Positions 71-29,403 are shown, counted from the first letter of the stretch. The stretch is 64,000 bases of DNA from Deltaproteobacteria bacterium (GCA_040218735.1 JAVJQW010000042.1:192001-256000); one strand, 5' to 3'. Notes: a model not told the origin generated them from the letters alone. Translations and numbers: made by a program.

Positions 71-2560
71 TCAGCGGCGCGTCCGAATCAACGCCTTGAC
101 GCGTTCGGCGTCGTTAGCGTCCGGCGCGAGGTCCACGTAGCGCTGGTAGTGGCGGATCGACTCCGTGGTTCGATCCTCGCGCGCGAAGATTACGCCGAGC
201 GAACGGTGGCACTCCGGGAGGTCGGCGAGCTCCACGCACTCGAGTAGCTTGGCCTTCGCGGCGTCGACCTTCCCTTTCGCGAGTTGCTGGTTGCCTTCGC
301 GGTAGAGCAAGCCAGCTTGCGCCAACGCGACGTCCTCGGTGTCGGGGGCGTCGTCCGAGACCGTTTCGACCGGGCGGGTCTGGACCCAGACGTAGGCCAC
401 CACGGCGCTCACCATCATCAGGAGCAGCATTGCGACCAGCCACCTGCTCTTGGAGGGCGCGCTGGCCGGCACCGTGGGGCTGGCGCGCGAGGGGGCTGCG
501 CCGTCCAACACACTGTCGGGGGGCGCTTCGATCTCCGGACCGGCCACGTCTTCGACCGGCACCTCCGAGATCTCGCCGCGGGGGATCGTCGTGACGACCA
601 TCGCCGCCGACGTGCCCGCGGTACCGTCGTCCATCAACGTGTCTTGGGCGTCGGTGCCGAACGGCTGGAGCTTGATCGGATCGTCGACGTGCGGGTCGTC
701 GAACATCGTCACCGCCGGCCGTGAACGGAGCGGCTCCGTCCGCACCGTCTGGTCGTCGTAGTCGACCTCGGGAAGCTCGTCCTCCTCGGCGAGGGCGCGC
801 ACGGCCTCCTGCACGTGGGCGGCGAGCGTCGGGTCCCCGAGCGTCGGATCTTCGTTGTCCTCTTGCTCGGTCGGCGCCGAGAGCGCGGAGAGCGCCCGCT
901 GCGAATCGATCGGGATCGTGGGGCCGTCGTTGCGACCGGGCACCTCATTTTCGGAGCTTGTGTCGCCGCCCGCGTCGGCGCCGCGGATCACCTCGGAGGG
1001 CCCCCCATCTTCGGAGCTCGCTTCGCTCGAGTCGGTGCCGCGGACCGCCGCTGAGGGCCCCCTATTCTCGGAGCTCGCTTCGCTCGACTGGGTGCCGCGG
1101 ACCGCCTCGGAGGGCCCCCCATTTTCGGACCTCGCTTCGCTCGGGCCGAGGGCACGTTCCTTCGGACGGCCCGCGGCGTACCCGCCGCGGACCGCCTCGG
1201 AGGGTACCCCGAGGCCGGACGCCCAGGGCACGGGCGGGTCCGTCGGGGCGGCCGCTTCCTCCGGCCACCTCGGCCGCGGGGGATCCGTCTCGGAGTCGTT
1301 GCGGTGCACCGCGGGGAGGCGCTGGGTGCCGTTGGGCCCCTGCGGCATCGGCGTCTCGGCTTCGTGCGGGAGCGTCGCCCCGGCCGAGGGGGTCCTCGAC
1401 TCGGAGCCGATCAGGTCCGCCTCCGCCCAGGAGATCGGCTCCGACCCCGGGAGCGGCTGACCGGCGTGGGGTGTCGGCGCAGCGTCCGGGGCGTCGGCGC
1501 CCGTGCGCGGTGTCTTCGCGCCGACCACGTCGATCGCCGCGTCCGTGTCGTCCGCGAGCGCTTCGATGTCCGGGTCGGTCGGCACCTGCGCGATCTGCTT
1601 CGGCGACGGTTTGTCCGGGAACGTCGCGAGCATGATCTCCGCGACCTCGTCCGAACCCATCGGGTTCGTCGCCGCGGTGAGGTGCGCCCACAGCGCCTGC
1701 CCCATGTCGCTCGCGTTCTGGTAGCGGCGATCCTTGTGCGCGACGAGCGCCTTCGCACAGATCGCGTCGAGCGACTGCGGGACGTCGCCGTTGACCTCCG
1801 ACGCCGCCGGCACGACGGCGCGCGTGATCGCGCGGAGGGTGTCGATCTCCCGCTTTCGTTTGAATAGATGGCGACCGGTCATCATCTCCCACAGCACGAT
1901 GCCGAGCGAGAAGACGTCCGAGCGGCGGTCGAGCGGCGTCGCCTCCACCTGCTCCGGCGACATGTACGCGTACTTGCCCTTGATGTGTCCGGTGCGCGTG
2001 AAGCTCTGGAACCCGGCGGCCTTCGCGACACCGAAGTCGAGCAGCTTCACCTCCCCGGAGAACGTGACGAAGATGTTCTGCGGGGAGATGTCACGGTGGA
2101 CGAGCCCGAGCGCGCGGCCGTCTTCGCCCGTGGCGTCGTGTGCGTAGTGCAGGCCTTCGCAGGTGCACGCGACGACGTAGGCCATCAGGTCGATCGGGAT
2201 CGGGGTCTTGTTGTCGAGGATGCGGCGCAGCAGTCCGGAGAGCGGGGCGCCGTGGAGGTACCGCATGACGAGGAACGGGCTCCCGTCCGCGATGCCGTAG
2301 TCGGTGATGCCGCAGATGTTCTGGTGCCCGAGGCGCGACAGGATCTTCGCCTCGTTCATGAACATCTGCATGACGTCGGCGCGGGAGGCGAGGTGGGGGT
2401 GGACGCGTTTGACCGCGTACCAGCCTTCGTCCGCCCCGTTGAGGCGCCCGAGGTACACGGAGGCCATGCCGCCGGCCGCGATCTTGCCGAACAGGGTGTA
2501 GTGGCCGAACTGTTCGACCTTGGTCGTCACGCCGGACGCCGGTGGGACCTCGGTCACCAC
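71..2560 (-). CDS. Membrane Ser/Thr protein kinase (Hanks type) with low-complexity linker, TM helix and C-terminal TPR module
   Basis: Motifs GGMASVY, AVK, HRDISPQN, DFG, GKYAYMSPE; hydrophobic WLVAMLLLMMVSAVVAYVWV; C-terminal TPR (CHRSLGVIFA...HYQRYVDLAP). Confidence 0.93.
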   Translation of the reverse strand: MVTEVPPASGVTTKVEQFGHYTLFGKIAAGGMASVYLGRLNGADEGWYAVKRVHPHLASRADVMQMFMNEAKILSRLGHQNICGITDYGIADGSPFLVMRYLHGAPLSGLLRRILDNKTPIPIDLMAYVVACTCEGLHYAHDATGEDGRALGLVHRDISPQNIFVTFSGEVKLLDFGVAKAAGFQSFTRTGHIKGKYAYMSPEQVEATPLDRRSDVFSLGIVLWEMMTGRHLFKRKREIDTLRAITRAVVPAASEVNGDVPQSLDAICAKALVAHKDRRYQNASDMGQALWAHLTAATNPMGSDEVAEIMLATFPDKPSPKQIAQVPTDPDIEALADDTDAAIDVVGAKTPRTGADAPDAAPTPHAGQPLPGSEPISWAEADLIGSESRTPSAGATLPHEAETPMPQGPNGTQRLPAVHRNDSETDPPRPRWPEEAAAPTDPPVPWASGLGVPSEAVRGGYAAGRPKERALGPSEARSENGGPSEAVRGTQSSEASSENRGPSAAVRGTDSSEASSEDGGPSEVIRGADAGGDTSSENEVPGRNDGPTIPIDSQRALSALSAPTEQEDNEDPTLGDPTLAAHVQEAVRALAEEDELPEVDYDDQTVRTEPLRSRPAVTMFDDPHVDDPIKLQPFGTDAQDTLMDDGTAGTSAAMVVTTIPRGEISEVPVEDVAGPEIEAPPDSVLDGAAPSRASPTVPASAPSKSRWLVAMLLLMMVSAVVAYVWVQTRPVETVSDDAPDTEDVALAQAGLLYREGNQQLAKGKVDAAKAKLLECVELADLPECHRSLGVIFAREDRTTESIRHYQRYVDLAPDANDAERVKALIRTRR
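981..1204. repeat. 57-bp in-frame tandem repeat (3 copies at 981, 1038, 1095 plus a partial copy at 1185) inside the kinase linker
   Basis: Unit approximately CCGCGGACCGCCTCGGAGGGCCCCCCATTTTCGGAGCTCGCTTCGCTCGAGTCGGTG; encodes GPSEAVRGTxSSEASSExx on the minus strand. Confidence 0.85.
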
Positions 2561-2618
2561 GCAGGGAGCATAGCCCGTCGTGATACCCAGGGACCAACCG
2601 ACCTGCTAATCAAGAAGG

Positions 2619-4412
2619 ATGTCCGCGACGCTGCTCAGGAACGGGACCGTGTACGACGGCACCGGCGCGGCGCCCATCGTCGGCGACGTGTTGGTGGAGG
2701 AGGGGGTGGTGAAGGCCGTGGGGCCCTCGTTGACGCACCCCACCGCGGAGGTGATCGATGCGACCGGCCGGTGGGTCATGCCGGGGTTCGTCGACAACCA
2801 CACCCACTACGACGGCGAGGTCCTCGTCGCGCCCCAGCTCTCGGAGTCGGTGCGGCACGGGGTGACGACGGTCCTGCTCGGCGGGTGCTCGCTGTCGTTC
2901 GTCTACTCGGACGTCATGGATTGTTGCGACATGTTCACGCGGGTCGAAGCGTTCCCGCGCGACATCCTCGTCCCGATCCTGAAGGACGAGAAGAAGTGGT
3001 CGTCGCCGCGCGAGTGGATCGATCACGTCGAGTCGCTGCCGCTCGGACCGAACATCGCTTCGTTCATCGGCCACTCCGACATTCGCGCGGCGGTGATGGG
3101 GATCGATCGTTCGCTCACGAAGGGCGTGCGGCCGAGCGGTGAAGAGCTGTCGCGGATGGTGGCGATGCTCGAGGAGGCGCTCGACGCCGGAATGCTCGGC
3201 ATCTCCATGCAGCACAACCCGTGGGACAAGATGGACGGGCGTCACTGGTCGAAGCTGTTGCCCGCGGCCTACGCGACCATGAAGGAGCGCGCGGCGCTGT
3301 GCTCGGTGGCGCGGCGTCGCGGCGCGCACCTGCAAGGCATCCCGAACCTCGTCAACCGCGTGGGGGCGCTCTGGTATATGGCGCAGAGCGCGTCGTTCTT
3401 CGGGCTGCGCAAGAAGCTGAAGACGTCGATGGTCGCGATGATGGACCTCAAAGGGGACCCGTACATCCGCGCGGTGATCAGCGGGCTGTCCGGCTTCTTC
3501 AACAAGGTCTTCGGCGCGGACTTCAGGATGCAGACGTTCCCGGTGCCGTTCCGCGTGTACGCGCGCGGGATGGACCTGGTGATCTTCGAAGAGTTCCCGA
3601 CGGGCGCGCTCGCGCGACACCTCTCGAAGGATCTCTCGAAGCGCGACGCCACGCTGAAGGACGCGGACTATCGCGCGAAGTTCAAGCGCCACTACAAGAA
3701 CAAGTGGGCGCCGAAGATCTGGCAGAAGGACTTCGGCGACGCGTACGTGCTCGAGGCGCCCGACGCCGAGCTCGTCGGAAAGTCGTTCTCGCAGATCGCA
3801 GAGGAGCGCGGGCAGCACCCGGTCGACACGTTCTTGGATCTGGTCGTGGAGATGGACCAGGAGATCCTGTGGGAGACGACGGTCGGTAACGAGGATCCCG
3901 CGCGCTACGGCCCGCTCTACAACGACGAGAACGGGCTGTTCGGCTTCGCCGATTCCGGCGCACACATCAACAACATGGCGTTCTACAACAACCCGTTGCG
4001 CGTCCTTCAGTACGTGAAGGCCTCGCACGATCGCGGAGCGCCGTTGATGGACATCGAGAAGGCGGTGTGGCGCCTCACGAAGGAGAACGCCGACTTCTTC
4101 AACCTCGCCGACGTCGGCCACCTCGCGCCCGGCAAACGCGCTGACGTCACGGTGATCGATCCCGCGCACCTCACGGACGCCGTGCACGAGCTCCACACCG
4201 CGCCGTTCGTCGGTGACTCGGTGCGGCTCGTGAACCGCAACGACGACGCGGTGACGTGTGTCCTCATCGGCGGGAAGGTCGCGTGGCGCGACGGCGCGCT
4301 GTCGGATCGGCTGGGCAAGGAGCGCTACGGTTCGTTCCTCGTCGGCGATCACGAAGCGGTGCAGGTCCCGACCGAAGCGGCGCCTCCACTCGCCGCGCGC
4401 ACCGCGGTCTGA
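2619..4412 (+). CDS. Amidohydrolase, N-acyl-D-amino-acid deacylase (D-aminoacylase) family
   Basis: N-terminal LLRNGTVYDGTG...PGFVDNHTHYD; ADSGAH; GHLAPGKRADVTVID. Confidence 0.85.
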   Translation: MSATLLRNGTVYDGTGAAPIVGDVLVEEGVVKAVGPSLTHPTAEVIDATGRWVMPGFVDNHTHYDGEVLVAPQLSESVRHGVTTVLLGGCSLSFVYSDVMDCCDMFTRVEAFPRDILVPILKDEKKWSSPREWIDHVESLPLGPNIASFIGHSDIRAAVMGIDRSLTKGVRPSGEELSRMVAMLEEALDAGMLGISMQHNPWDKMDGRHWSKLLPAAYATMKERAALCSVARRRGAHLQGIPNLVNRVGALWYMAQSASFFGLRKKLKTSMVAMMDLKGDPYIRAVISGLSGFFNKVFGADFRMQTFPVPFRVYARGMDLVIFEEFPTGALARHLSKDLSKRDATLKDADYRAKFKRHYKNKWAPKIWQKDFGDAYVLEAPDAELVGKSFSQIAEERGQHPVDTFLDLVVEMDQEILWETTVGNEDPARYGPLYNDENGLFGFADSGAHINNMAFYNNPLRVLQYVKASHDRGAPLMDIEKAVWRLTKENADFFNLADVGHLAPGKRADVTVIDPAHLTDAVHELHTAPFVGDSVRLVNRNDDAVTCVLIGGKVAWRDGALSDRLGKERYGSFLVGDHEAVQVPTEAAPPLAARTAV

Positions 4413-4505
4413 CGTGTGTGCGTCTGCGCAAAAAGTGATCGTTTCGGCGCCAGGCGTCACATGTAAGGTATCGACCCCGTAACCTCAGTCTTCGACCGCC
4501 TCGCC

Positions 4506-5480
4506 GTGGTCTTGAACCGTGCACTGGAGCGCATGTTCGTCATCGCCGACGACGTCGGACCGATCGACGATCACACGCGCGCCCACGACGAGCCGGCGCG
4601 CGAGTGCGCGGCGTGCGGTTGGGTGGGGGACAGTCGGGTGTGTGATCGCTGCGGTCAGTGCAGCTCGGTCGCGCGTGTGCCGCGTGTCATTCGCGGTCAG
4701 TTCGTCGTTCGCTCGTGCATCGGGCGCGGTGCATCGGGCGTCGTCTATCTCGCGAAGGATCGCACCCTGGATCGGTGGGTCGCGGTCAAGACGCTGGCCG
4801 ACGTGCCCGCGACCGATCGCCTGATCCAGGAAGCCCAAACCATGGCGCGCGTGGTCCACCCGAACCTCGCCACGATCTACGGCGTGGAGACGTGGCGCTC
4901 CCGGTGCCTCCTGATGGTGGAGTACGTCGGTGGCGGGACCCTCGAAGACCGTTTGAAGGCGGGGCCCCTCGAGCCGACGGAGGTCGTAGAGTTTGCGCTC
5001 GCGTTGTTCTCCGCGCTCCGCGCGATACACGCCGCCGGGGTGCTTCACCGCGACGTCAAGCCGAGCAACATCGCGCGCGCCGCCGACGGTACGTGGAAGC
5101 TCATCGACTTCGGCGTCGCCCAGATGGCGAACTCGGACGACGAGACGTACGTGGGCACGCCGCTGTACACGTCGCCGGAGCAACTGTGGGGCGGACCGGC
5201 GAACGTCGCCGCGGATCTGTGGGCGGCGGCGGTGACGAGCTACGAAGCGCTGTGCGGCGTGCACCCGCTCGCGGACGACCGTCGCGCCACCGAGGTCGCG
5301 GAGGCGCTCTGCGGCGCGTGGTCGCCTGACCCGGATCGGCTCCCCGAAGGCTGCCCGGACGCGCTCGTGTCGCTGCTCGTCGACGCGCTCGACGCCGACC
5401 CGGGGCGCCGCCCGAGCTCCGCCGCCGAGGTGATCGAGCGTCTCACGAGCCATCGCTTCGCGACGGGGTACGCCGCCTAG
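4506..5480 (+). CDS. Soluble Ser/Thr protein kinase with short N-terminal CxxC..CxxC segment
   Basis: GRGASGVV, VAVK, HRDVKPSN, DFG, GTPLYTSPE; N-terminal CAACG...CDRCG; start uncertain. Confidence 0.88.
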   Translation: MVLNRALERMFVIADDVGPIDDHTRAHDEPARECAACGWVGDSRVCDRCGQCSSVARVPRVIRGQFVVRSCIGRGASGVVYLAKDRTLDRWVAVKTLADVPATDRLIQEAQTMARVVHPNLATIYGVETWRSRCLLMVEYVGGGTLEDRLKAGPLEPTEVVEFALALFSALRAIHAAGVLHRDVKPSNIARAADGTWKLIDFGVAQMANSDDETYVGTPLYTSPEQLWGGPANVAADLWAAAVTSYEALCGVHPLADDRRATEVAEALCGAWSPDPDRLPEGCPDALVSLLVDALDADPGRRPSSAAEVIERLTSHRFATGYAA

Positions 5481-5481
5481 G
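5462..5481 (+). repeat. Left 20-bp direct repeat (attL-like / target duplication)
   Basis: GACGGGGTACGCCGCCTAGG, identical to 9550-9569; contains the kinase stop codon. Confidence 0.9.
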
Positions 5482-5502
5482 TTTGCATCGTTGCCCTAAC
5501 GT

Positions 5503-7113
5503 CTAGTCCTCGGGAACAGCGCCATCAGGAACACCCAGGGACGTTAGGAACATCGAAAAGTCGGTCTCCAGCGCAATTCTCCTAGTCAAGATAAATCGGT
5601 CTACGTCGCCGTCGCCCAGACACTCCCATGCTCGATCATTAATTAGATGACTTGCGCGGTATGACTCCGATCGGAAAAGCTCGTGTTCAAACCTGACGCC
5701 GCGCCGTCTCGCTTCCAGCGCTGCAACGAAGCCGTCTTCTTTTTCCAGTGAGAGCAAGAATCTGTTTCCGGGATCTCGAGCTAGGTCACCGCCAGACGTC
5801 GCGACGCCACGAATGAGGGCTCTCGCAGCTTGTGATTCCAACCGAGATATTAGATCCTCGTCCTCTTGCTGGTACCTGAACAACTGTAACGCGAGGGCCT
5901 TGATTCGTGCGTGACGTGGGTCAGAAGTATTCGGTAGCTCAAGCGGCTCCCAGGCCGAGACTGACCAGGGCCAGGCTACATCTGCGCGCGAATCGAGCGC
6001 CTGGAGGTACCGCAGCATGCTCGACAATCGGTACCCGCTCATTCCTGAGAATGATGCTTGTGCAGTCGTCCACCAGAACCACCGGACCAGAGCCGAACGG
6101 AGGGCTTTCTTCGGTTGGCGCGGATGGCGTCGTAGCACGTCTGCGAGCAGCACGGCCTGATACGAGTATGGCAGCAAGCCGAGCCCCACGATCCCAAACT
6201 GCTTGCGCATGAACCTAGCCGTGCGCTCGAAGCCGGTAATCACGTCATCGAGAACGCTCGGGTCGCGCCTGAGTGCCTCGCCGAGCTCGCGACCCGAACT
6301 GGTATAGATATCCATATCAAGCGCGGCTCGTATTCCCGCCAGGATATACGACTCATCGATCCCGCCCCACCCCAATCGGCCCAGTCGTTCCTTTGCAGTG
6401 TCGAGCCGTTCTCTCAACGAGTAGTCTTCTTGCCAGGTGAGGGCAGCTACAAGATCCAGATCAGACATCTTCGTACCTTCTGTATTCAGAAGGCCGAACG
6501 TCCTAATCGCTTCGTCGACAGCGTCGGTAACAACAGGAACGATTGGAATCTTGTACTCGCGTACTGCCCGCGCGATTCGATCACTTACCTCAACAAGTTC
6601 GTCCGCATCATCGCCATCAAGGGAGCGCTGAAACCGAAGTAGCGCTACGCTATCCAGGATCAGTCGTCCGTCTAACACGAACTTCATTTCGCCTTGGTCT
6701 ACGTCATCCAAGAACGTCCAGTTCCGTCTACGAAGGTCATAGCCGAGGGCCCACCGTCCACCGTCCCGATGGTCCCTAATGTTGGCCTCCTTCGGTGACC
6801 GGAGCGCAGCAAACAGCGTTGACAGTCGCTGAAAACCATCCAGTAGGTATTGCCTCCCCGGACTCTTGCTGCGAGGCACTTCGTAGGGGCCGATTTGCTT
6901 TCTGAAATTGACGTGGATGTCCGTGCGCCATACCATCACACTGCCGATCGGGTATCCCTTCGACACGCTGTCAAGCAGGCTGAGGCGCTGGTCGCCGCTC
7001 CACCGATCGGGTCTTTGGAATTCAGGCACAACAAGTTCGCCTCGGCCTATCTGCTCCAGTACCTGGTATAGGTACTGGATCTGAGGTTCACTTGCGTAGG
7101 AAAGTGTCGACAT
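5503..7113 (-). CDS. DUF262 (GmrSD N-terminal, ParB/Srx-like) domain protein
   Basis: VPEFQRPDRW, LLDSVSKGYPIGSVMVW, YLLDGFQRLSTL, FGLLNTEGTKMS are the DUF262 FQR / DGQQR / FxxxNxxG motifs. Confidence 0.85.
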   Translation of the reverse strand: MSTLSYASEPQIQYLYQVLEQIGRGELVVPEFQRPDRWSGDQRLSLLDSVSKGYPIGSVMVWRTDIHVNFRKQIGPYEVPRSKSPGRQYLLDGFQRLSTLFAALRSPKEANIRDHRDGGRWALGYDLRRRNWTFLDDVDQGEMKFVLDGRLILDSVALLRFQRSLDGDDADELVEVSDRIARAVREYKIPIVPVVTDAVDEAIRTFGLLNTEGTKMSDLDLVAALTWQEDYSLRERLDTAKERLGRLGWGGIDESYILAGIRAALDMDIYTSSGRELGEALRRDPSVLDDVITGFERTARFMRKQFGIVGLGLLPYSYQAVLLADVLRRHPRQPKKALRSALVRWFWWTTAQASFSGMSGYRLSSMLRYLQALDSRADVAWPWSVSAWEPLELPNTSDPRHARIKALALQLFRYQQEDEDLISRLESQAARALIRGVATSGGDLARDPGNRFLLSLEKEDGFVAALEARRRGVRFEHELFRSESYRASHLINDRAWECLGDGDVDRFILTRRIALETDFSMFLTSLGVPDGAVPED

Positions 7114-8099
7114 TAAAGTGCCCCGAGAATAAAGTGGAAAATTTCTCCTAGCTCGTCGTTAATCTTGAACTGTTCGCACATGACTTCATTGGCGTACTTA
7201 CAGGCGCGCCACACCGAGTTTCCCAGTGGGACCTTCAAGTCTCGCAACTCCTTCCTGCTAACGTTGTAGTTCTCGTCTTCAGCTTTAGGGATACCGTCTT
7301 TCAGGTGGTGATGTCTCTGCACTCTTGCGGGAAGACGGCTATACACTTCGATATGTCGGTGCTGTTCCTCGGTCGCAGGCATCTCTTTCGCCCAAGTCGC
7401 GATCGCGGGAGGTGGAATGTAGTTCTCGGCCATGCGGCGTGAAAGGACTCTGATTCGGATATTCGCCGCTCTGGCGGCCTCTACAGCTTTCCTTACGGCG
7501 TCGGGAAGATTGTTCGTGCAGCGCTCATACTCTTCGCTAGACGTTAGCCATGGTGACGTTGTATCGCTATCGGTAATAACAACCGTCCGGAGACGTCGCA
7601 ATCCGTCGCTCCTTTCGTCCTCCAGTCGCCGTGCGACGTTCGTCACACCACCGGCGTTGCTCCATCTTACGAAGTCCCTGCTACGTGCCGTCTTCCAGTT
7701 TCTTCGATGGGTCGGTGGAACGAGCGCATCAAGAAGCCCTCCGTCGCTCGATTCGTCCTCTACGAGAACCTCAAGCGGTGTCATCCACAGGGCAACAGCA
7801 TCGTCCAAAGTCAAGACGGGGGGCGTACTCCCCCAGTCGGATCGGTCAGGATCTCCAACCTGAACGGTGAAAGTACTTGGGAACCTCGCATGCCGTCTCT
7901 TCGCGTGATTGATCGCGCGGCGGAAGGTGTCTCGTTCTTCCTCGTTTCGACTCGACAGCCAATCGTCAAACACAGCCCTTCCGTCTGGTACCACGATAAG
8001 GTTGTGCCGCCCGCGAGACGCTAGAGCGACAAGCGTCACGAGGGATATACGCCGTTCAGTGCGGCATTCGACCGCTGTTCGCAGTAGTTCAATCCGCAC
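7113..8099 (-). CDS. TOPRIM-like (OLD/DUF4435/AriB-type) putative nuclease
   Basis: Motifs VLVEDESSD, NAGG, VVITDSD (DxD), RRMAENY; GTG start at 8099 with TGGAG RBS overlaps the ATPase stop; TAA stop overlaps the DUF262 ATG (TAATG). Confidence 0.68.
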   Translation of the reverse strand: MRIELLRTAVECRTERRISLVTLVALASRGRHNLIVVPDGRAVFDDWLSSRNEEERDTFRRAINHAKRRHARFPSTFTVQVGDPDRSDWGSTPPVLTLDDAVALWMTPLEVLVEDESSDGGLLDALVPPTHRRNWKTARSRDFVRWSNAGGVTNVARRLEDERSDGLRRLRTVVITDSDTTSPWLTSSEEYERCTNNLPDAVRKAVEAARAANIRIRVLSRRMAENYIPPPAIATWAKEMPATEEQHRHIEVYSRLPARVQRHHHLKDGIPKAEDENYNVSRKELRDLKVPLGNSVWRACKYANEVMCEQFKINDELGEIFHFILGAL

Positions 8100-9300
8100 T
8101 CGTGGAGCTCCAATTCGACCTAGCCTCGCTGAGCCGCTCCGCCAAATCAGATGCCTCCGAAAAAATGTCTGGCGGAAGATGGTGGTCCGGTACACCTTTG
8201 TCAGTGAGTTCGACTCTCTGCGCGATGCTGCGACCATCATCCAACTGATGCACCCAGTGGATCGCGACCTGACTAGGGAGTAGTTTTTCTCTCGCCACGG
8301 ACAAGAGTACCGAAAGCAGGAAATGCTCCGAATGCGTCTCGACGAGGATTCTGGTCTGAGGATTTCTACGCACAGCCTTCACTATCCACGCAGTAACCTG
8401 TTCGTGAAGTCGTGGATGAAGGTGCAGTTCCGGCTGTTCCAACGCCAGAATGCGGGGGCCAGAGTCAGTCATTGACTGTGCTACAGAGACAGCCACTGGC
8501 AGCACTTGGGCGAGGCCTTCGCCCGTGTCCGCCAGATCGACGCTAAGCGCTGGCTGCGCGGGGGGCGAGATCCTAATTCGAAAATCGTCTTCCACCTCCT
8601 CAATCGAAAGCCTAAGGTTCAGGTGGTTGTGGAAAAAATCGACGACTAGCTCAAAGACCTCTGACCCATCCAACTTGGCATAGGCCAGTACGCGAGCCGC
8701 GTCCTCCCCATCCGGCCGCATTGGGCCATTTGGTCGGCCACCGAACGGAATTCGCCGTGGGACACGCGCACGTAGCGAATCGAGCCACTGAGATCGCTCG
8801 AGGTCCGCGTGGGCGGGCATGTCCCAGCGAAGATTCGGCCCGGACACTGATAGTCCCTCGATGCTCAGATCGATGGTTTCATCTCTTCCACTACCTATGA
8901 GTCTATACTGAGTAAGTCCCTGCGTAGTCCATTCAAGGCTGCTGGTTCCAGTATGGTCGGTGCGGACGATTTTCTCGACAACCTGCCTGCGCAGGTCCGG
9001 CAAGTCTCGAATCGTGTACGTCGCCTTCGACTCCTCATCCTCGACGATGACTGCGAGGGAAAGGCCGTTGTCCATGCGAGACTTGACGTCCGAGAATGTC
9101 GCTTCGCGTAGCGACGGTGCTGCAAAGGAGATTGGTGGGCCACCTTCCCGCTGCGTCTGCTGTAGGAGAGGAACAAGTCGGAGGAGCGCACTCTTGCCGG
9201 AGCTATTGTAGCCGAACAGCAGAGTGAACGGTCGAACGTCGACCTGTGTGGGGTCCACGAATCCTCGGTAGTTCTCAACGCCTAGAAGCTGCAACGACAC
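8089..9300 (-). CDS. ABC-type ATPase (AAA_21/AAA_15 family, DUF3696-like C-terminus)
   Basis: VENYRGF; Walker A GYNSSGKS; signature-like DTGEGLAQVLP; Walker B ILALEQPELHLHP; H-loop ETHSEH. Confidence 0.9.
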   Translation of the reverse strand: MSLQLLGVENYRGFVDPTQVDVRPFTLLFGYNSSGKSALLRLVPLLQQTQREGGPPISFAAPSLREATFSDVKSRMDNGLSLAVIVEDEESKATYTIRDLPDLRRQVVEKIVRTDHTGTSSLEWTTQGLTQYRLIGSGRDETIDLSIEGLSVSGPNLRWDMPAHADLERSQWLDSLRARVPRRIPFGGRPNGPMRPDGEDAARVLAYAKLDGSEVFELVVDFFHNHLNLRLSIEEVEDDFRIRISPPAQPALSVDLADTGEGLAQVLPVAVSVAQSMTDSGPRILALEQPELHLHPRLHEQVTAWIVKAVRRNPQTRILVETHSEHFLLSVLLSVAREKLLPSQVAIHWVHQLDDGRSIAQRVELTDKGVPDHHLPPDIFSEASDLAERLSEARSNWSSTSAD

Positions 9301-9549
9301 GATGGGCCACCTTCGAGCCGATGCTCACACATCTCTTGGCCGTCGGCCAGCAGGTTTGGACGCCCGGCTCGATGCCATACCGTCCGGAGAAGTCTCGGGC
9401 CCAGCCCCCATGGTCAAGGCCGTCAATGACCTCGTTCCAAAGAACGTCAACGTGCAGGCGCGTAAGGGAAGCTGGGAACTCGAACGATGAGCGCCGATCT
9501 ACTTGAGGCGGTTGCGCCTACTACGTAGAGGTTCAGGCATGTTGTGCGT

Positions 9550-9569
9550 GACGGGGTACGCCGCCTAGG
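9550..9569 (+). repeat. Right 20-bp direct repeat (attR-like)
   Basis: GACGGGGTACGCCGCCTAGG identical to 5462-5481; contains the minus-strand stop codon of the sigma54-type regulator. Confidence 0.9.
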
Positions 9570-11061
9570 AATCGTTGTGTCGCCCCAACCCGTGCAGGCG
9601 GATCAGGTTGTACATGTGCGAACGCGTGATCTGTAGGCGGTCGGCCGCGCGCGCTACGACGCCGTCCTCGGCGTCGAGCGCCTGCGCCACCAACCTCCGC
9701 TGAAAGGCGCGCGTCGCCTCGTGGTACGACAGCTCGTCGTCTCGCCGACCGTCTTCGGCGGGCGCGAAATGCTGGGTCTCGATCTGCATCGCGCCGTCCC
9801 CGTTCGCTCGCAGGCGCGCGCCGATGACCACGTTCTCGAGCTCGCGGATGTTGCCGCTCCACTCTTGGTTCTGCAGCCAGAACAGCGCGGCCGGCGCGAT
9901 CGGGATCGGCTCGAGCCCGGCTTCGCTCGCCCGCTGATAGGCGAGGTGGCTCGCCAGCGCCGGGATGTCCTCGACCCGTTCCGCGAGGCTCGGCATCCGG
10001 ATCGGGAGCACGTTGATGCGGTAGTAGAGGTCCTCGCGGAAGCGCCGCTCGCGAACGCGCTCGGCGAGGTCCGCGTTCGTCGCCGTCACGACCCGTGCGT
10101 CGGCTTCCCGTTGTTGGTCGGCGCCCACCGGGAAGTAGATCTTCTCCTGCAGGAGCGTGAGCAACTTGGCTTGCGCGTCGAGGGACAGCTCCGCGACCTC
10201 GTCGAGGAACAGCGTGCCGCCCGACGCAGCGGCGACTTTGCCCTTCCGATCTTCGGTCGCCGTGGAGTGCCCGCCGCGCACCGCGCCGAACAGCTCGTTC
10301 TCCAGGAGCTCGGTCGGGAGGTTCGCGCAGTTGACGTGGACGAAGGGGCCCAGACGCCGCAGGCTGTTGCCGTGAATCGCGCGCGCCACGAGTGACTTGC
10401 CCGTGCCGCTCGCTCCCGTCAGGAGCACCGCGATGTCCGTCTTCGCGACCAGCTCCAGCTGCTCGAAGACCCGGGCGAGGGCGGCGCTGCGCCCCACGAT
10501 CGATTCGACGGACAGACGAACGCGAAGGGCATCCGTGGCGTCGTCGTCGCTGGATGGGTGCGCGAGTCGGCGCACGACCGGCGCGATGTGGAAAACGACG
10601 CGTTCGAACAGCGCGAGGTCGTCGTCGGCGAACCCTCCGCTCGAACGACCCTCGAGGTAGATCGAGCCGAGCACCGGTGCATCTCCGATCGGCGCGCAGA
10701 CGACGGCTCCGACCCTCTTCAGCTGCACGCTCTTCCGTTCCCGGAATCGTGTGTCGGCGAGCGCCGACGACGTGTGGACCGTCCGCCCCTCCGCGATGGC
10801 CTCGGCGATGATGCCGCGCGACACACGTTTCTGCGCTCGCTCGCGCTCCTCGTCCGTCAGGCCGGTGTCGATCGTCTCGGCTTCGCTCCGCGTCGCGTCG
10901 CGGTAGATCTCCATGTAGCCGTGTTCGGCCCCGAGCGTCCGCGCGGCGAGCGCCAACGCGCCGCGCACCGCCTCTCGCGGATCGTCGACGTGATAGAGGT
11001 CGAGCAGCGCAGCGTAGAGGTCACGTTCGAGCTCGGTGCGGCGGGGATCGTTCGAGCTCAC
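9565..11061 (-). CDS. GAF-AAA+-Fis HTH enhancer-binding-type transcriptional regulator (GAFTGA loop replaced by GGHSTA)
   Basis: GAF region, Walker A GASGTGKS, FVHVNCA, GGTLFLDE, RFREDLYYRIN, WSGNIRELEN, C-terminal HTH; likely GTG start at 11061. Confidence 0.9.
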   Translation of the reverse strand: MSSNDPRRTELERDLYAALLDLYHVDDPREAVRGALALAARTLGAEHGYMEIYRDATRSEAETIDTGLTDEERERAQKRVSRGIIAEAIAEGRTVHTSSALADTRFRERKSVQLKRVGAVVCAPIGDAPVLGSIYLEGRSSGGFADDDLALFERVVFHIAPVVRRLAHPSSDDDATDALRVRLSVESIVGRSAALARVFEQLELVAKTDIAVLLTGASGTGKSLVARAIHGNSLRRLGPFVHVNCANLPTELLENELFGAVRGGHSTATEDRKGKVAAASGGTLFLDEVAELSLDAQAKLLTLLQEKIYFPVGADQQREADARVVTATNADLAERVRERRFREDLYYRINVLPIRMPSLAERVEDIPALASHLAYQRASEAGLEPIPIAPAALFWLQNQEWSGNIRELENVVIGARLRANGDGAMQIETQHFAPAEDGRRDDELSYHEATRAFQRRLVAQALDAEDGVVARAADRLQITRSHMYNLIRLHGLGRHNDS

Positions 11062-11139
11062 GCCCTCGCATGCTCCGTGACGACCAGAACCGGAATCAAT
11101 CCGCGGTAACGCCGCCGTCCGCGAGGCCAGGCGAATCAC

Positions 11140-12141
11140 TCAGTGCGCGAGCAGAGTCCACAGCGCGTCGGCCGCCAACCCCGGCGACCCCGCACCCGCG
11201 CGCTCCGCTTCGTGCACGCGTTTCACCACGCGCCGGTTGATCGGCGCGTCGATGCCGGCCGCTTCGGCGCGTCGGACGATCTCGCCGTTGAGCCAATCGA
11301 CCTCCGTCGGTCGGCCCCGCGTGAGGTCTTCCCACATCGACGAGCGCGCGTCGGCGTCGACCTTCATCTGTGCGCCGGTCACGAGGCGGACGATCGGCGT
11401 CGGCAGGCGCAACACCTTCGGCATCAGGCCGACCGGTACGCCGCGCAGCTTCGCGGGCCGCACACCCGAAGCGCGCGCGACGGCGAGGCCCTCGTCGATC
11501 AGCGCGGCGACGCAGCGACGATAGCCAGGCGACAATAGGATCTGTCGGGTCGGCGCGTCCGACAACGCGCTCACCGCGTTGTTGAGGTTCACACACAGCT
11601 TCGTCCACTGGTGCGGCACGAGATCGTCGTACACGACGAGGTCGAGCTCGCCGGCGCGAATCGCGGCGTTCGATCGCGGCTCGGGTTCGAGCACGATCGG
11701 CCCGTCCATCGTCCGGTGGAATCGACCCTCGCCGCGCGACACCACGTTGTACTCCACGATGCCGGGCACCACGCGTCGCGGACCGAGGTGCAGGCGCAAC
11801 CGGTCCGCGTTGCCCAACCCGTTCTGCAGGCTCGCGACGACCGCGTCCTCCCGGAGAATCGGCGCGAGCACCTTCGCGACCTCTTCGGTCTGCCCGCTCT
11901 TCACCGCGACGAACACGACGTCGCACGCCGCGAGCGCCGCGGGATCCGTGACGTACCGGATCGTCTGTGCGCGGCGGGGCGCGGCGTCCAGGTCCTGGAC
12001 CGAGAGCCCGTGCTCCGCGATCTCTTTTGCCAGCCGCTCGCGCCCGACGAGGACGACCTCGGCGCCGGACAGCGCGATCTTGCCGCCGACGTAACAACCG
12101 ATGGAACCGGCGCCCATCACGCCGACGGTGGGGGCCGCCAC
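11140..12141 (-). CDS. panE: 2-dehydropantoate 2-reductase (ketopantoate reductase)
   Basis: GAGSIG Rossmann motif, VAVKS, SLQNGLGN, WTKLCVN, SSMWEDL, TEVDWLNGEIV; start re-assigned to GTG 12141. Confidence 0.85.
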   Translation of the reverse strand: MAAPTVGVMGAGSIGCYVGGKIALSGAEVVLVGRERLAKEIAEHGLSVQDLDAAPRRAQTIRYVTDPAALAACDVVFVAVKSGQTEEVAKVLAPILREDAVVASLQNGLGNADRLRLHLGPRRVVPGIVEYNVVSRGEGRFHRTMDGPIVLEPEPRSNAAIRAGELDLVVYDDLVPHQWTKLCVNLNNAVSALSDAPTRQILLSPGYRRCVAALIDEGLAVARASGVRPAKLRGVPVGLMPKVLRLPTPIVRLVTGAQMKVDADARSSMWEDLTRGRPTEVDWLNGEIVRRAEAAGIDAPINRRVVKRVHEAERAGAGSPGLAADALWTLLAH

Positions 12142-12220
12142 GCGCGCGATGATGCCGCTTCGCTCGTCGCCGGCAAATCGGTCTTCCCGCATCGCGCCCC
12201 CCGGTGCTACCCCACCCCCT

Positions 12221-13117
12221 GTGTTTCCGCGGCTGTCGTTCTTCTTCCGGCAGGCGCTCCTCGCGCTCGTCCGGTCGCTCGGCGTCACGTCGGTCGCGGT
12301 GGCGACGATCGGCGTCGCGCTCGCGGTGCTCGCGACCTTCGTGGTCATCGTCGACAACCTGCGCCGCGTCGCGGAAGAGCTCGGTCGCGACGTCGAGATC
12401 TCCGCGTACGTGCCGAAGGCGATCACCCGCGTCGACGGCGTGACCCTCGCCGCCGAGATCGAGTCCTGGGACGACGTCGAGAAGGCGCGCTTCCTCGAGT
12501 CCGAAGTCGCGATGGAGGAGTTCCGCGAGGTGCTCGCGGAGGACGCCGTGCTCCTCGAAGGCCTGCCGCCGGACCTGCTCCCGCCGTCCGTCGAGATCCG
12601 CCTCGTCCCCCGAACGTGGACGCGCGTGGAGGTCGAGGCGATCGGTCGCCGCATCGCCGAGCTGAAACCGATCGAAGACGTGCGCTTCGGTCAGGACGAC
12701 ATCGAACGCGTCAACGCGATGCTCGGCTTCGCGCGCATCACCACGCTGATCCTCGGCATCGCGCTCTGCCTCGGCACCATACTGATCGTGTCGAACACCA
12801 TCCGCCTTACCGTCTACGCCCGGCGCGACGAGATCGAGATCATGAGCCTCGTCGGAGCGACCAACGCGTTCGTTCGCGCGCCCTTCGTGCTCGAAGGCAT
12901 GATCCAGGGCGTCCTCGGTGGCGCGTTCGCCGCCATCGTCCTCGTCGTGCTCGAAGAAGGGCTCCGCGTGGGCCTCGAACGCGGCCTCTCCTACGCCTAC
13001 GGGCCGGTCGATCTCTCGTTCGTCCCCTTACACTTCATCGGCTACCTCCTCATCGCGGGCGTGACGCTCGGCCTCGTGGGTTCGGTGCTCGCGGTGGGGC
13101 GCTTCCTGAAGGTATGA
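12221..13117 (+). CDS. ftsX: Cell division permease FtsX
   Basis: 1+3 TM layout; LPPSVEI; IVSNTIRLTVYARRDEIEIMSLVGATNAFVRAPFVLEG. Confidence 0.92.
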   Translation: MFPRLSFFFRQALLALVRSLGVTSVAVATIGVALAVLATFVVIVDNLRRVAEELGRDVEISAYVPKAITRVDGVTLAAEIESWDDVEKARFLESEVAMEEFREVLAEDAVLLEGLPPDLLPPSVEIRLVPRTWTRVEVEAIGRRIAELKPIEDVRFGQDDIERVNAMLGFARITTLILGIALCLGTILIVSNTIRLTVYARRDEIEIMSLVGATNAFVRAPFVLEGMIQGVLGGAFAAIVLVVLEEGLRVGLERGLSYAYGPVDLSFVPLHFIGYLLIAGVTLGLVGSVLAVGRFLKV

Positions 13118-24328: not shown

Positions 24329-24938
24329 GCGGAAACTACCGCGTCTTCACGTCATCACGGACGAAGTCCTACAAACCCAATTCGATCACGTCACCCTCGC
24401 GCGCCTCGCGTTCGAGGGCGGTGCGGGTGCCGTGCAGCTTCGTGAGAAGCGCCCGCGTTCGACGCGTGCGTTGATCGAGATCGCGGTGGCTGCACGCCGT
24501 GACGACCGGGTCGTCATCATCGACGACCGCACCGACGTCGCGGCCGCCGCCGGTGTCGGCGTACACGTCGGCGCCGAAGATCTTCCGGTGTCGGTCGCGC
24601 GCCGCTTGCTGGGCCCGGACGCCATCGTCGGCTTCTCCACCCGCACCGTGGAGGGGGCGCGCGCCGTCACGGACGTCGACTACATCGGCGTCGGACCGGT
24701 GTACGGCACACGCTCGAAGCCCGGCCTGACCACCCCCCTCGGGTTGGAGATGCTGGCTCGGATCGTTCGTGTATCGCCGGTGCCGGTGATCGCGATCGGC
24801 GGCATCACCGCGGAGCACGTGCCCGAGGTCCTCGCGACCGGCGCCTACGGCGTCGCGGCGATCTCCGCGATCGTCTGCGCGCAGGATCCGGCGGCCGCGA
24901 CCGCGAAGTTCGTCGAGGCGATCGAAGGCGCTTCGTGA
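24327..24938 (+). CDS. thiE: Thiamine-phosphate synthase
   Basis: VQLREK, IIDDRTD, GVHVG.ED, GPVYGTRSK, IAIGGIT. Confidence 0.92.
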   Translation: MRKLPRLHVITDEVLQTQFDHVTLARLAFEGGAGAVQLREKRPRSTRALIEIAVAARRDDRVVIIDDRTDVAAAAGVGVHVGAEDLPVSVARRLLGPDAIVGFSTRTVEGARAVTDVDYIGVGPVYGTRSKPGLTTPLGLEMLARIVRVSPVPVIAIGGITAEHVPEVLATGAYGVAAISAIVCAQDPAAATAKFVEAIEGAS

Positions 24939-25926
24939 GCCGCGACGTCACCGTCGTTGGCGACGGAATCATCGGCCTCGCGATCGCGAACGAGGCCCTC
25001 GACCGCGGGTGGGCCGTGACCCTCGTCGGCGAGGCACGTCCGGGCGCCGCGTCGAATGCGGCGGCCGGGATGCTCGCCCCGTTCGCCGAGGACGAGGTCG
25101 GCGCCGACGCGCTGGCGCCGCTGATGAACGCGAGCCTGGAGATGTACCCGGCGTGGCTCGCGCGTGTGGCGCCGCAAGTCAGGTTGCAGTCGCAGGGGAG
25201 TCTGTTCCTCGCGCGCGATCGCGATCGGTTGGTGCAGCTGCGTCACGAGGAGCGGCGACGTCGCGAGGGTGGCGCAGGATCGGGTGCACGTTGGCTCGAC
25301 CGCGACGCGCTCTTCGACGCCGAGCCCGCGTTGTCACCGCGGATGCTCGGCGGGTTCGTCGTCGAGCGCGAGCGCGCGGTGGACCCGCGGCGGCTGCGGG
25401 TGGCGCTCCGCGAACGCTTCGAGGCGCTGCGCGGTCGTGCGGCGGTCGGTGGTGTCACCGTGCGCGCCTGCGGAGCGTGGACCGATCCGTGGGTGCGTCC
25501 GGTACGCGGGCAGGCGCTCCTGTTGTCCGGCGCACCGCTGCTGTCGCACGTGATCCGCACGCCTGACGTGTACTTCGTGCCGCGGGGCGAGCAGCTCTAC
25601 GTCGGCGCCACGAGCGAAGAGAAGGCGTTCGATGTTCGCCCGACGGCGGGGGAGACGCTCGAGCTGTTGCGCGAGGCGTTTCGGCTGGTGCCGGGGATCG
25701 CGGAGCTGGCGTTGGACGAGGTGCTCGTCGGTTTCCGGCCCGCGACCCGCGATCACCTCCCGGTGATCGGACACGTCGCGCCGGAGGAGATCGTCGCGTC
25801 GGGTCACTACCGAAACGGCGTCCTGCTCGCGCCGATCACGGCGCGGCTCGTCGCGGATCTCATCGAGACCGGGGAGGTGCCCGCGTTGGCGCGGTTCGAT
25901 CCCCGGCGTTTTGGAGGGTTGAAGTC

Positions 25927-25930
<4 letters not shown>
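24935..25930 (+). CDS. thiO: Glycine oxidase
   Basis: GDGIIG, ASNAAAGMLAP, RPVRGQ, GFRPAT, GHYRNGVLLAP; operon context. Confidence 0.88.

Positions 25931-29403
<3,473 letters not shown>

Follow-up and report, generated by a model that had tools for sequence, protein, structure and literature searches.

What do the three genes at positions 5503-9300 of a 64,000-nucleotide stretch from a Deltaproteobacteria bacterium (GCA_040218735.1 JAVJQW010000042.1:192001-256000; hereafter the window, with positions counted from its first letter) do for their host? A reading of the sequence alone (the sequence-only reading) had taken them for a candidate anti-phage system composed of an ABC ATPase, a Toprim-like nuclease and a DUF262 protein, similar to PARIS with an added sensing subunit. 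We consider it probable that the islet is one self-contained three-gene anti-phage system of the PDC-M55 type, with parts that match those of the defence system Menshen. The folds and motifs of the proteins, the conserved order of their genes and several signs of mobility were observed here. The genes are:

8089-9300, minus strand: gene of an OLD/NsnB-type ABC ATPase (PDC-M55A); 403 amino acids (aa), GTG start; AAA_15 4.9e-16, AAA_21 6.7e-12
7113-8099, minus strand: middle gene, coding for a putative two-domain effector (PDC-M55B); 328 aa, GTG start at 8099; PDC-M55B 5.1e-22
5503-7113, minus strand: gene of a DUF262/GmrSD-like NTPase (PDC-M55C); 536 aa; GmrSD_N 2.1e-23, PDC-M55C 2.3e-79

Coupling, family assignment and conservation of the trio

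The genes are arranged head to tail on the minus strand in the order ATPase, middle gene, DUF262 gene. As read from the sequence, the ATPase and the middle gene overlap by 11 nucleotides (nt), with the start of the latter at GTG 8099 and the stop of the former at 8089-8091. The middle gene and the DUF262 gene share 1 nt at 7113, where TAATG holds the TAA of the first and the ATG of the second. Thirteen homologue N-termini align with GTG-8099. A longer middle frame starting at ATG-8240 was rejected; it would overlap the ATPase gene by 152 nt, and the homologues start at GTG-8099.

The top PADLOC matches were PDC-M55A for the ATPase (E-value 8.3e-52; protein residues 2-396 to profile positions 2-415 of 421), PDC-M55B for the middle protein (5.1e-22; 8-286 to 7-258 of 315; its sole PADLOC match) and PDC-M55C for the DUF262 protein (2.3e-79; 8-529 to 10-540 of 554). 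Thus all three profiles are matched over nearly their full length, and the genes are contiguous in A-B-C order. NCBIfam added nothing useful for the three proteins. The PDC systems are described as 145 untested phage defence candidates found through 'guilt by embedding' and drawn from genes that lie within BREX, DISARM or type I restriction-modification (RM) loci (bioRxiv 10.1101/2024.01.29.577857). The window copy differs in having no BREX, DISARM or type I RM surroundings. The sequence-only reading had not recognised the trio as a named system, which has to be corrected. The full match to a described system that it had named as speaking against its proposal is nearly what the PDC-M55 profiles give, the candidate itself being catalogued and unvalidated.

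The three family profiles were run over all fetched loci, which had been found via the middle protein or the ATPase. In this conditional sample the order ATPase-middle-DUF262 was present in 20 of the 25 loci other than the window, from three phyla and including one plasmid. Four of the 25 (L005, L006, L015, L025) are cut by the end of the sequence, and the two expected neighbours are present in each. The DUF262 gene was found in every locus with enough DNA to see it, except one remnant (L026; G293:C390), where a full ATPase gene precedes a middle gene cut down to its first ~90 residues and the DUF262 gene is absent from the 1.5 kb downstream. Because the gene order is kept in 20 of 25 other loci, we regard one defence-type system as the best reading of the trio.

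Matches to the middle protein occur in 16 of 401 genomes of the phylum (14 of the 316 of good quality) and in 2 of 41 relatives, its own genome counted in each figure. A scan of genome contigs with the single middle protein found no relative, and a smaller alignment (A2) gave four loci. With tblastn the middle protein found nothing in the plasmid collection or the phage collection; the ATPase search returned two records of the plasmid collection, both with the trio. The loci include a Nannocystis metagenome-assembled genome (MAG; L003) and a record of the actinomycete Nonomuraea gerenzanensis (L034).

On pYEE5, a mobilizable plasmid of the alphaproteobacterium Paracoccus yeei (L033), the trio lies at positions 24671-28670 of the record and is annotated merely as AAA family ATPase, hypothetical protein and DUF262 protein. 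It directly follows a recombinase family gene, a RelE/ParE-CopG pair is nearby, and its guanine plus cytosine (GC) content is 0.47 against 0.59-0.65 in the flanks. In L019/L024 (G211:C136, ~83035-83831) the middle gene is broken up into two frames that overlap (at profile positions 3-166 and 154-263), which suggests a frameshifted and possibly decaying copy. This locus also belongs, with L013, L014 and L022, to a sub-variant in which a third gene of ~350-390 aa at the same place matches only the DUF262 part (profile ~8-209) and the match of the middle protein is confined to positions 1-262 and 287-327. In size the third gene of the sub-variant is nearer to NsnA of Menshen.

Motifs and folds of the three proteins

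The ATPase matched the Pfam families AAA_15 (4.9e-16) and AAA_21 (6.7e-12), in agreement with its earlier identification as an ABC ATPase. Alignment of 59 ATPase sequences (A4) showed invariant Walker A residues G30, N32 and G35-K36-S37 (GYNSSGKS), R65, the signature D258-x-G260-E261-G262 (D-T-G-E-G), E288-Q-P290-E291-x-H293-L-H295 with the Walker B sequence LEQPE, and H323; Walker A, Walker B and the H-loop are complete, as had been stated from the sequence. A C-terminal tail is conserved as well (W375-P376..V379-F380 in A4; tail sequence PPDIFSE..LAERL).

After PDC-M55A, the best named PADLOC family was NsnB (3.1e-29, positions 5-338 of 345, 100.8 bits). NsnB is the ATPase of Menshen, a system of NsnA, NsnB and NsnC that was validated in Solibacillus silvestris (PMC12065111), and is described as an ABC ATPase with a DUF3696 tail, an arginine for the Q-loop glutamine, GxG for SGG and an altered Walker B dyad (PMC12065111). 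All three oddities are present in the window ATPase and invariant in the 59 sequences: R65, which stands where the Q-loop glutamine is expected, G260-E-G262 and E288-Q. DUF3696 was not detected by Pfam in the window ATPase; among the 120 homologues listed it was found in three.

The 401 genomes of the phylum were also searched with the NsnB profile, and the scores fell into three tiers. The top tier, with 320-390 bits, is canonical NsnB. In 14 of the 16 loci taken from it (L037-L052) the gene directly upstream of the ATPase codes for a DUF262 protein; a gene of the middle type of the window occurs in none of the 16. The low tier, 97-137 bits, holds the PDC-M55 ATPases, that of the window scoring 97 bits. 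The middle tier of 185-206 bits contains 14 loci (L053-L066), whose ATPases form a third group between canonical NsnB and PDC-M55A with 162-194 bits on the A4 profile; neither a DUF262 gene nor a gene of the middle type is adjacent in them. Judged by its sequence, the ATPase appears to represent a distinct subfamily of the OLD/NsnB clade, closest to Menshen NsnB among the named families.

The middle protein was divided by structural alignment into two parts:

7782-8099, minus strand: PIN-like domain, residues 1-106; no invariant acidic residue
7116-7781, minus strand: predicted OLD-type Toprim nuclease region, residues 107-328; E114, GG150-151, D177xD179, RR221-222..E225-N-Y227

Relatives of this protein number 498 representatives at E <= 0.001 and 175 at E <= 1e-10. 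In an alignment of 122 middle-protein sequences (A1) E114, G151, D177 and R222 are invariant and D119, G150, D179, R221, E225 and Y227 nearly so (E114 and D177 in 122/122, D179 and D119 in 121/122, E225 in 119/122). The E..GG..DxD..ENY pattern noticed in the single sequence, including E225-N226-Y227, is therefore invariant or nearly so in the family. Pfam gave no match for the middle protein and no Toprim-related family across the 122 members, merely two weak unrelated matches in single members. A sequence profile search of the PDB gave only a chance match (E 1.4), Foldseek against the PDB gave nothing at E <= 0.001, and the atlas search gave only unnamed 'hypothetical' clusters.

The AlphaFold model of the middle protein had a predicted local distance difference test score (pLDDT) of 96.3 and a predicted template modelling score of 0.91. 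Its residues 106-328 aligned with the C-terminal region of Burkholderia pseudomallei OLD (6nk8_B; Z 10.3, root-mean-square deviation (rmsd) 3.5, 173 residues aligned). The Toprim region further aligned with Thermus scotoductus OLD (6p74_A, Z 8.2), GajA of Gabija (8u7i_A, Z 6.8) and Retron Eco2 (9i2f_C, Z 6.6). The model thus points to a C-terminal OLD-family-like Toprim region with a conserved glutamate and DxD. Residues 1-106 matched PIN domains (SMG5 2hwy_B, Z 6.3 with 75 residues aligned; 7f3e_E, Z 5.0; 2mdt, Z 4.8), and the order of strands and helices in the model fits a PIN-like alpha/beta domain. The best acidic column of this part is position 100 with D/E in 86 of the 122 sequences. 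The extra N-terminal domain of about 100 aa, which had been placed in front of the Toprim part from the sequence, agrees with the structural alignment and most likely is an inactive PIN-like module.

OLD (P2 Old; class 2 of B. pseudomallei and T. scotoductus) and GajA thus provide the best structural match for the effector's C-terminal region, and the ATPase is of their AAA_15/OLD-ABC type. In OLD classes 1 and 2, as well as in GajA, a single polypeptide contains both ATPase and Toprim. Here, in contrast, they are encoded by two genes with an 11-nt overlap, and a PIN-like domain is part of the Toprim protein.

If the trio were strictly of the PARIS type, the ATPase would sense a phage protein, e.g. 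an anti-restriction DNA mimic, and free a tRNA-cleaving Toprim protein, with the DUF262 protein as an accessory. ATPase and Toprim are indeed in separate genes as in PARIS, both have motifs of the E..DxD..ENY type, the AriA profile matches the ATPase (1.2e-17), and AriB aligns to the Toprim region (8v46_D; Z 8.0, 158 residues). Yet the AriA match covers only a C-terminal piece (residues 250-328, 62.8 bits), whereas NsnB matches the whole protein with 100.8 bits, and AriB aligns to residues 106-324 only and has no counterpart of the PIN-like domain. DUF4435, the Toprim family to which the single-domain AriB belongs, was absent from the Pfam scan of the 122 middle-protein members. PARIS consists of two genes without a DUF262 partner, whereas the cassette of the window has three conserved genes, the DUF262 gene being present in all loci where its position is visible save the one remnant. 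We therefore regard the PARIS-type reading as unlikely. A single defence-type system with an added subunit, as proposed earlier, stands; the kinship with PARIS does not, given the whole-length match to NsnB and a predicted domain layout like that of NsnC which AriB lacks.

The DUF262 protein was divided as follows:

6436-7113, minus strand: DUF262 domain, residues 1-226; QR..W, DGxQR and F..N motifs
minus strand, within the same gene: helical middle domain, residues ~227-400
5506-5913, minus strand: beta-beta-alpha region, residues ~401-536; no conserved histidine

The assignment of the third gene to DUF262 was confirmed by the GmrSD_N match and by the three motifs, which are invariant or nearly so in an alignment of 42 sequences (A3; Q33-R34..W38, D92-G93-x-Q95-R96, F206..N210). 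The model of the protein (pLDDT 92.3) superposed over residues 8-534 on BrxU (7p9k_A; Z 17.6, 480 residues aligned, rmsd 14.7), and Foldseek agreed on a BrxU-like fold (6.4e-11). Residues 214-529 matched the C-terminal region of SspE (7dri_A, Z 9.5). The NsnA profile matched the DUF262 part only (5.5e-4), the protein being ~150 aa longer.

The likeness to GmrSD, BrxU and SspE thus extends from the DUF262 domain with its three motifs to the chain as a whole for BrxU and to a part of it for SspE. It differs from all three by the coupling of the family to an ATPase-Toprim pair. A further difference concerns the DUF1524 His-Me (HNH) domain with its catalytic histidine in GmrSD and BrxU. None of the 42 members matched DUF1524 (E <= 0.01), and no histidine is conserved in residues 425-475 of the 42 sequences, which include the beta-beta-alpha stretch 433-471; at position 435, 13 of them have Q, 11 have R and 6 have H. 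Only N450 (37/42) and R511 (42/42) stand out in the beta-beta-alpha and C-terminal part. We infer a GmrSD-like protein with a putative decayed nuclease domain, a region that still aligns to BrxU in its fold.

One might suppose that the islet holds two independent systems, with the DUF262 gene coding for a GmrSD-type type IV restriction enzyme next to a separate ATPase-Toprim pair. The superposition on the whole of BrxU would fit this, and GmrSD-like proteins are described as acting alone (bioRxiv 10.1101/2024.01.29.577857). However, the lack of DUF1524 matches and of a conserved histidine in the beta-beta-alpha region, the overlap of the DUF262 start codon with the stop of the middle gene and the order fixed in 20 of 25 loci make this very unlikely. 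Moreover, the third gene keeps its position even in the sub-variant, where it is shorter (~370-390 aa).

The islet and its surroundings

The trio is set between the following features:

9301-9546, minus strand: 246 nt of non-coding islet sequence upstream of the trio; presumed operon promoter and leader
5459-5481, plus strand: left direct-repeat copy CGCGACGGGGTACGCCGCCTAGG, 23 nt; contains the stop codon of the Ser/Thr kinase gene
9547-9569, plus strand: right direct-repeat copy CGTGACGGGGTACGCCGCCTAGG, 23 nt; its last bases contain the stop codon of the sigma-54 activator gene
4506-5480, plus strand: flanking Ser/Thr kinase gene; Pkinase 3.6e-45
9565-11139, minus strand: flanking sigma-54 activator gene; Sigma54_activat 1.6e-60

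The GC content of the islet is 0.57 compared with 0.69 in the flanks; in finer steps it is 0.53-0.60 over 5501-9500 and 0.67-0.72 on both sides. The two repeat copies, identical in 22 of 23 positions, are located exactly at both GC transitions. Two matches to the repeat were observed in the window versus 0.00 expected from 100 shuffles, and its 20-nt core is found nowhere else in the 11.6-Mb genome assembly. The 3' end of the repeat, CCTAGG, supplies the stop codon of each of the convergent neighbours, that of the kinase in the left and that of the activator in the right copy. Between the copies there are the three genes and the 246-nt upstream stretch, and nothing more. Thus the positions, the overlaps, the low GC content and the bracketing repeat all agree with the earlier description of three coupled genes as the sole cargo of an islet.

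The repeat pair looks like a target duplication, and the simplest reading would be that a cassette of ~4.07 kb entered the space between two convergent genes and its target was duplicated. No integrase or transposase was found inside the islet and no tRNA gene within the first 20 kb of the window. A pre-insertion empty site was not seen; the DNA search with the sigma-54 activator gene in 21 genomes (20 relatives and its own) gave nothing beyond matches of 65-75% in the AAA+ core, the level of paralogues. Flanking repeats in nine other loci were limited to short exact matches of 13-16 nt that appear to be due to chance. The GC content of the trio was below that of both flanks in 10 of the 10 loci examined. 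The patchy distribution, the low GC content of the trio and the genome-unique repeat are signs of mobility and mark the cassette as horizontally acquired. In the operon upstream region (9301-9546) no minus-strand promoter site of the sigma-70 type was detected, a scan that is little informative for such an organism. An open reading frame (ORF) of 62 aa with an ATG start lies on the opposite (plus) strand of this region at 9302-9490.

A neighbour scan covered five extended loci with 107 ORFs of at least 220 aa, L034 being left out. In L068 a Septu-like pair (10687-13052, minus strand; PtuB 6.9e-43, PtuA 4.1e-53) lies ~1.7 kb from the trio in a separate patch of low GC content (0.54-0.55). L070 and L071 showed weak mad2-like matches near the trio. 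Two further observations come from other loci. In L006, from a Deltaproteobacteria MAG, a 1057-aa ORF (1457-4630, plus strand) with mad3-like (3.3e-30) and mad8-like (7.5e-13) matches lies directly upstream, and in L004 a PDC-S27-like gene lies downstream.

These surroundings bear on the question whether the cassette serves in defence at all. It might instead be an addiction or stabilisation module or a selfish DNA-maintenance cassette, built from a ParB-like NTPase, an SMC-like ABC ATPase and a Toprim protein. The islet stands alone and without defence neighbours, one copy is on a mobilizable plasmid beside a recombinase gene and a RelE/ParE pair, and the pairing of ParB and ABC ATPase resembles ParB-SMC, an analogy drawn for Menshen (PMC12065111). 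On the other hand, for each part that can be recognised the nearest relatives belong to defence systems (OLD, PARIS, Gabija, retron effectors, Menshen, BrxU and SspE). Furthermore, the clusters behind the PADLOC profiles include copies that sit inside BREX, DISARM or type I RM loci (bioRxiv 10.1101/2024.01.29.577857), and the chromosomal copies lack a replication or partition context. We judge a role outside defence to be quite unlikely.

Kinship with Menshen and the proposed mechanism

Among validated systems Menshen is the nearest to the cassette, not PARIS. In Menshen, NsnA combines DUF262, with the motifs QRxxxW, DGxQR and FxxxN, and a helical DNA-binding (ParBDB) domain, and NsnC consists of an inactive PIN-like N-terminal domain and one of 15 effector families, two of them with a Toprim fold (PMC12065111). 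The cassette has the same set of domains, i.e. a DUF262 NTPase, an NsnB-like ATPase and a predicted effector with an inactive-PIN-like domain and a nuclease domain; judged by fold, the latter two would be laid out as in NsnC. The arginine for the Q-loop glutamine, GxG, the altered Walker B and the conserved C-terminal tail of the ATPase add to the likeness. In contrast, the gene order here is ATPase-effector-DUF262, whereas 1997 Menshen systems were collected by the order NsnA, then NsnB, then a third gene (PMC12065111). Likewise, the NsnB profile gives the ATPase 97 bits as opposed to 320-390 bits for canonical members, and the DUF262 protein has 536 aa and the full length of BrxU as opposed to ~385 positions of the NsnA profile. 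A comparison of A1 by hhalign with three ORFs at the NsnC position gave probabilities of 0.1-0.5%, a result that is weak either way with single sequences on one side. Because of the permuted gene order and an ATPase far below canonical NsnB scores, we read the cassette as a sister of Menshen and not as a member. Although we do not file it as Menshen, we do think, by analogy, that it likely works like Menshen.

The proposed course of events draws on Menshen, PARIS, Gabija and GmrSD for the defence role, the sensing partner, the signal path and the cleaved target. The DUF262 protein, a GmrSD/BrxU-like NTPase with intact motifs and no conserved nuclease histidine, would be the sensor that detects invading, possibly modified, phage DNA. 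An oligomer of the OLD/NsnB-clade ABC ATPase would act as a transducer and restrain the effector, probably via the C-terminal tail of the ATPase and the inactive PIN-like domain of the effector. For NsnB and NsnC a hold through the PIN-like domain and the C-terminal tail is predicted (PMC12065111). Binding or hydrolysis of ATP would release or activate the OLD-type Toprim domain, the predicted nuclease, for cleavage of DNA or tRNA. As a result the phage would be stopped, possibly at the expense of the cell.

The contact between transducer and effector was examined by complex prediction with two copies of the ATPase, effector residues 1-110, ATP and Mg. The median score was 0.42 (runs 0.42, 0.00 and 0.51) versus 0.01 for the best control, with a pLDDT of the partner of at least 71 and a contact agreement between runs of at least 72%. 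Of 157 solved complexes, 116 reached the mark used for such predictions, as did 2 of 215 mismatches; at scores of 0.60 or below, only 18 of the 157 solved complexes pass, plus both passing mismatches. The model thus lends weak support to a contact of the ATPase and the effector.

A more elaborate version is possible, but we hold it only tentatively. According to it, PDC-M55, as a sister of Menshen, would have turned a GmrSD/BrxU-type type IV restriction enzyme, its own nuclease lost, into a pure sensor of modified or foreign DNA, which via an NsnB-like ATPase licenses a caged OLD-type Toprim nuclease docked through the inactive PIN-like domain. The system would then be a hybrid of modification-dependent restriction and abortive infection, and a mobile minimal 4-kb unit able to insert between convergent genes with a 23-bp duplication.

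Several points weigh against the view that the islet is an anti-phage system of the proposed design. The locus of the window is outside a defence island, its neighbours, the Ser/Thr kinase and the sigma-54 activator, being of a housekeeping type, and within flanks of 5-6 kb a known defence system adjoined the trio in only one of the five related loci scanned, namely Septu in L068. The trio is already catalogued as PDC-M55, yet as an experimentally unvalidated candidate, and that name was not found in the literature searched. The co-occurrence count is non-independent, with loci chosen by the middle protein or the ATPase and many of them kin. As for the proteins, the match of the PIN-like domain is of middling strength (best Z 6.3), and the Toprim assignment is owed solely to exhaustive structural alignment of the model. 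The nuclease target could be DNA or tRNA; relatives cut DNA (OLD, GajA) or tRNA (AriB). The role of the DUF262 protein as a sensor is proposed by analogy only, and in Menshen NsnA was not predicted to bind either partner (PMC12065111).

If the cassette defends its host, PDC-M55 would turn from an untested database entry into a working system. The islet is compact and self-contained (~4.1 kb including its own upstream region) and is easy to clone and to mutate. It would then also be a natural comparison for Menshen, the mechanism of which is still predicted only, in that it has the same parts in another order and a sensor that shows descent from type IV restriction. Such a comparison could reveal how a DUF262 NTPase and an ABC ATPase communicate and how a nuclease is caged by a PIN-like adaptor. 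For the host genome, the cassette is one more horizontally acquired accessory element.

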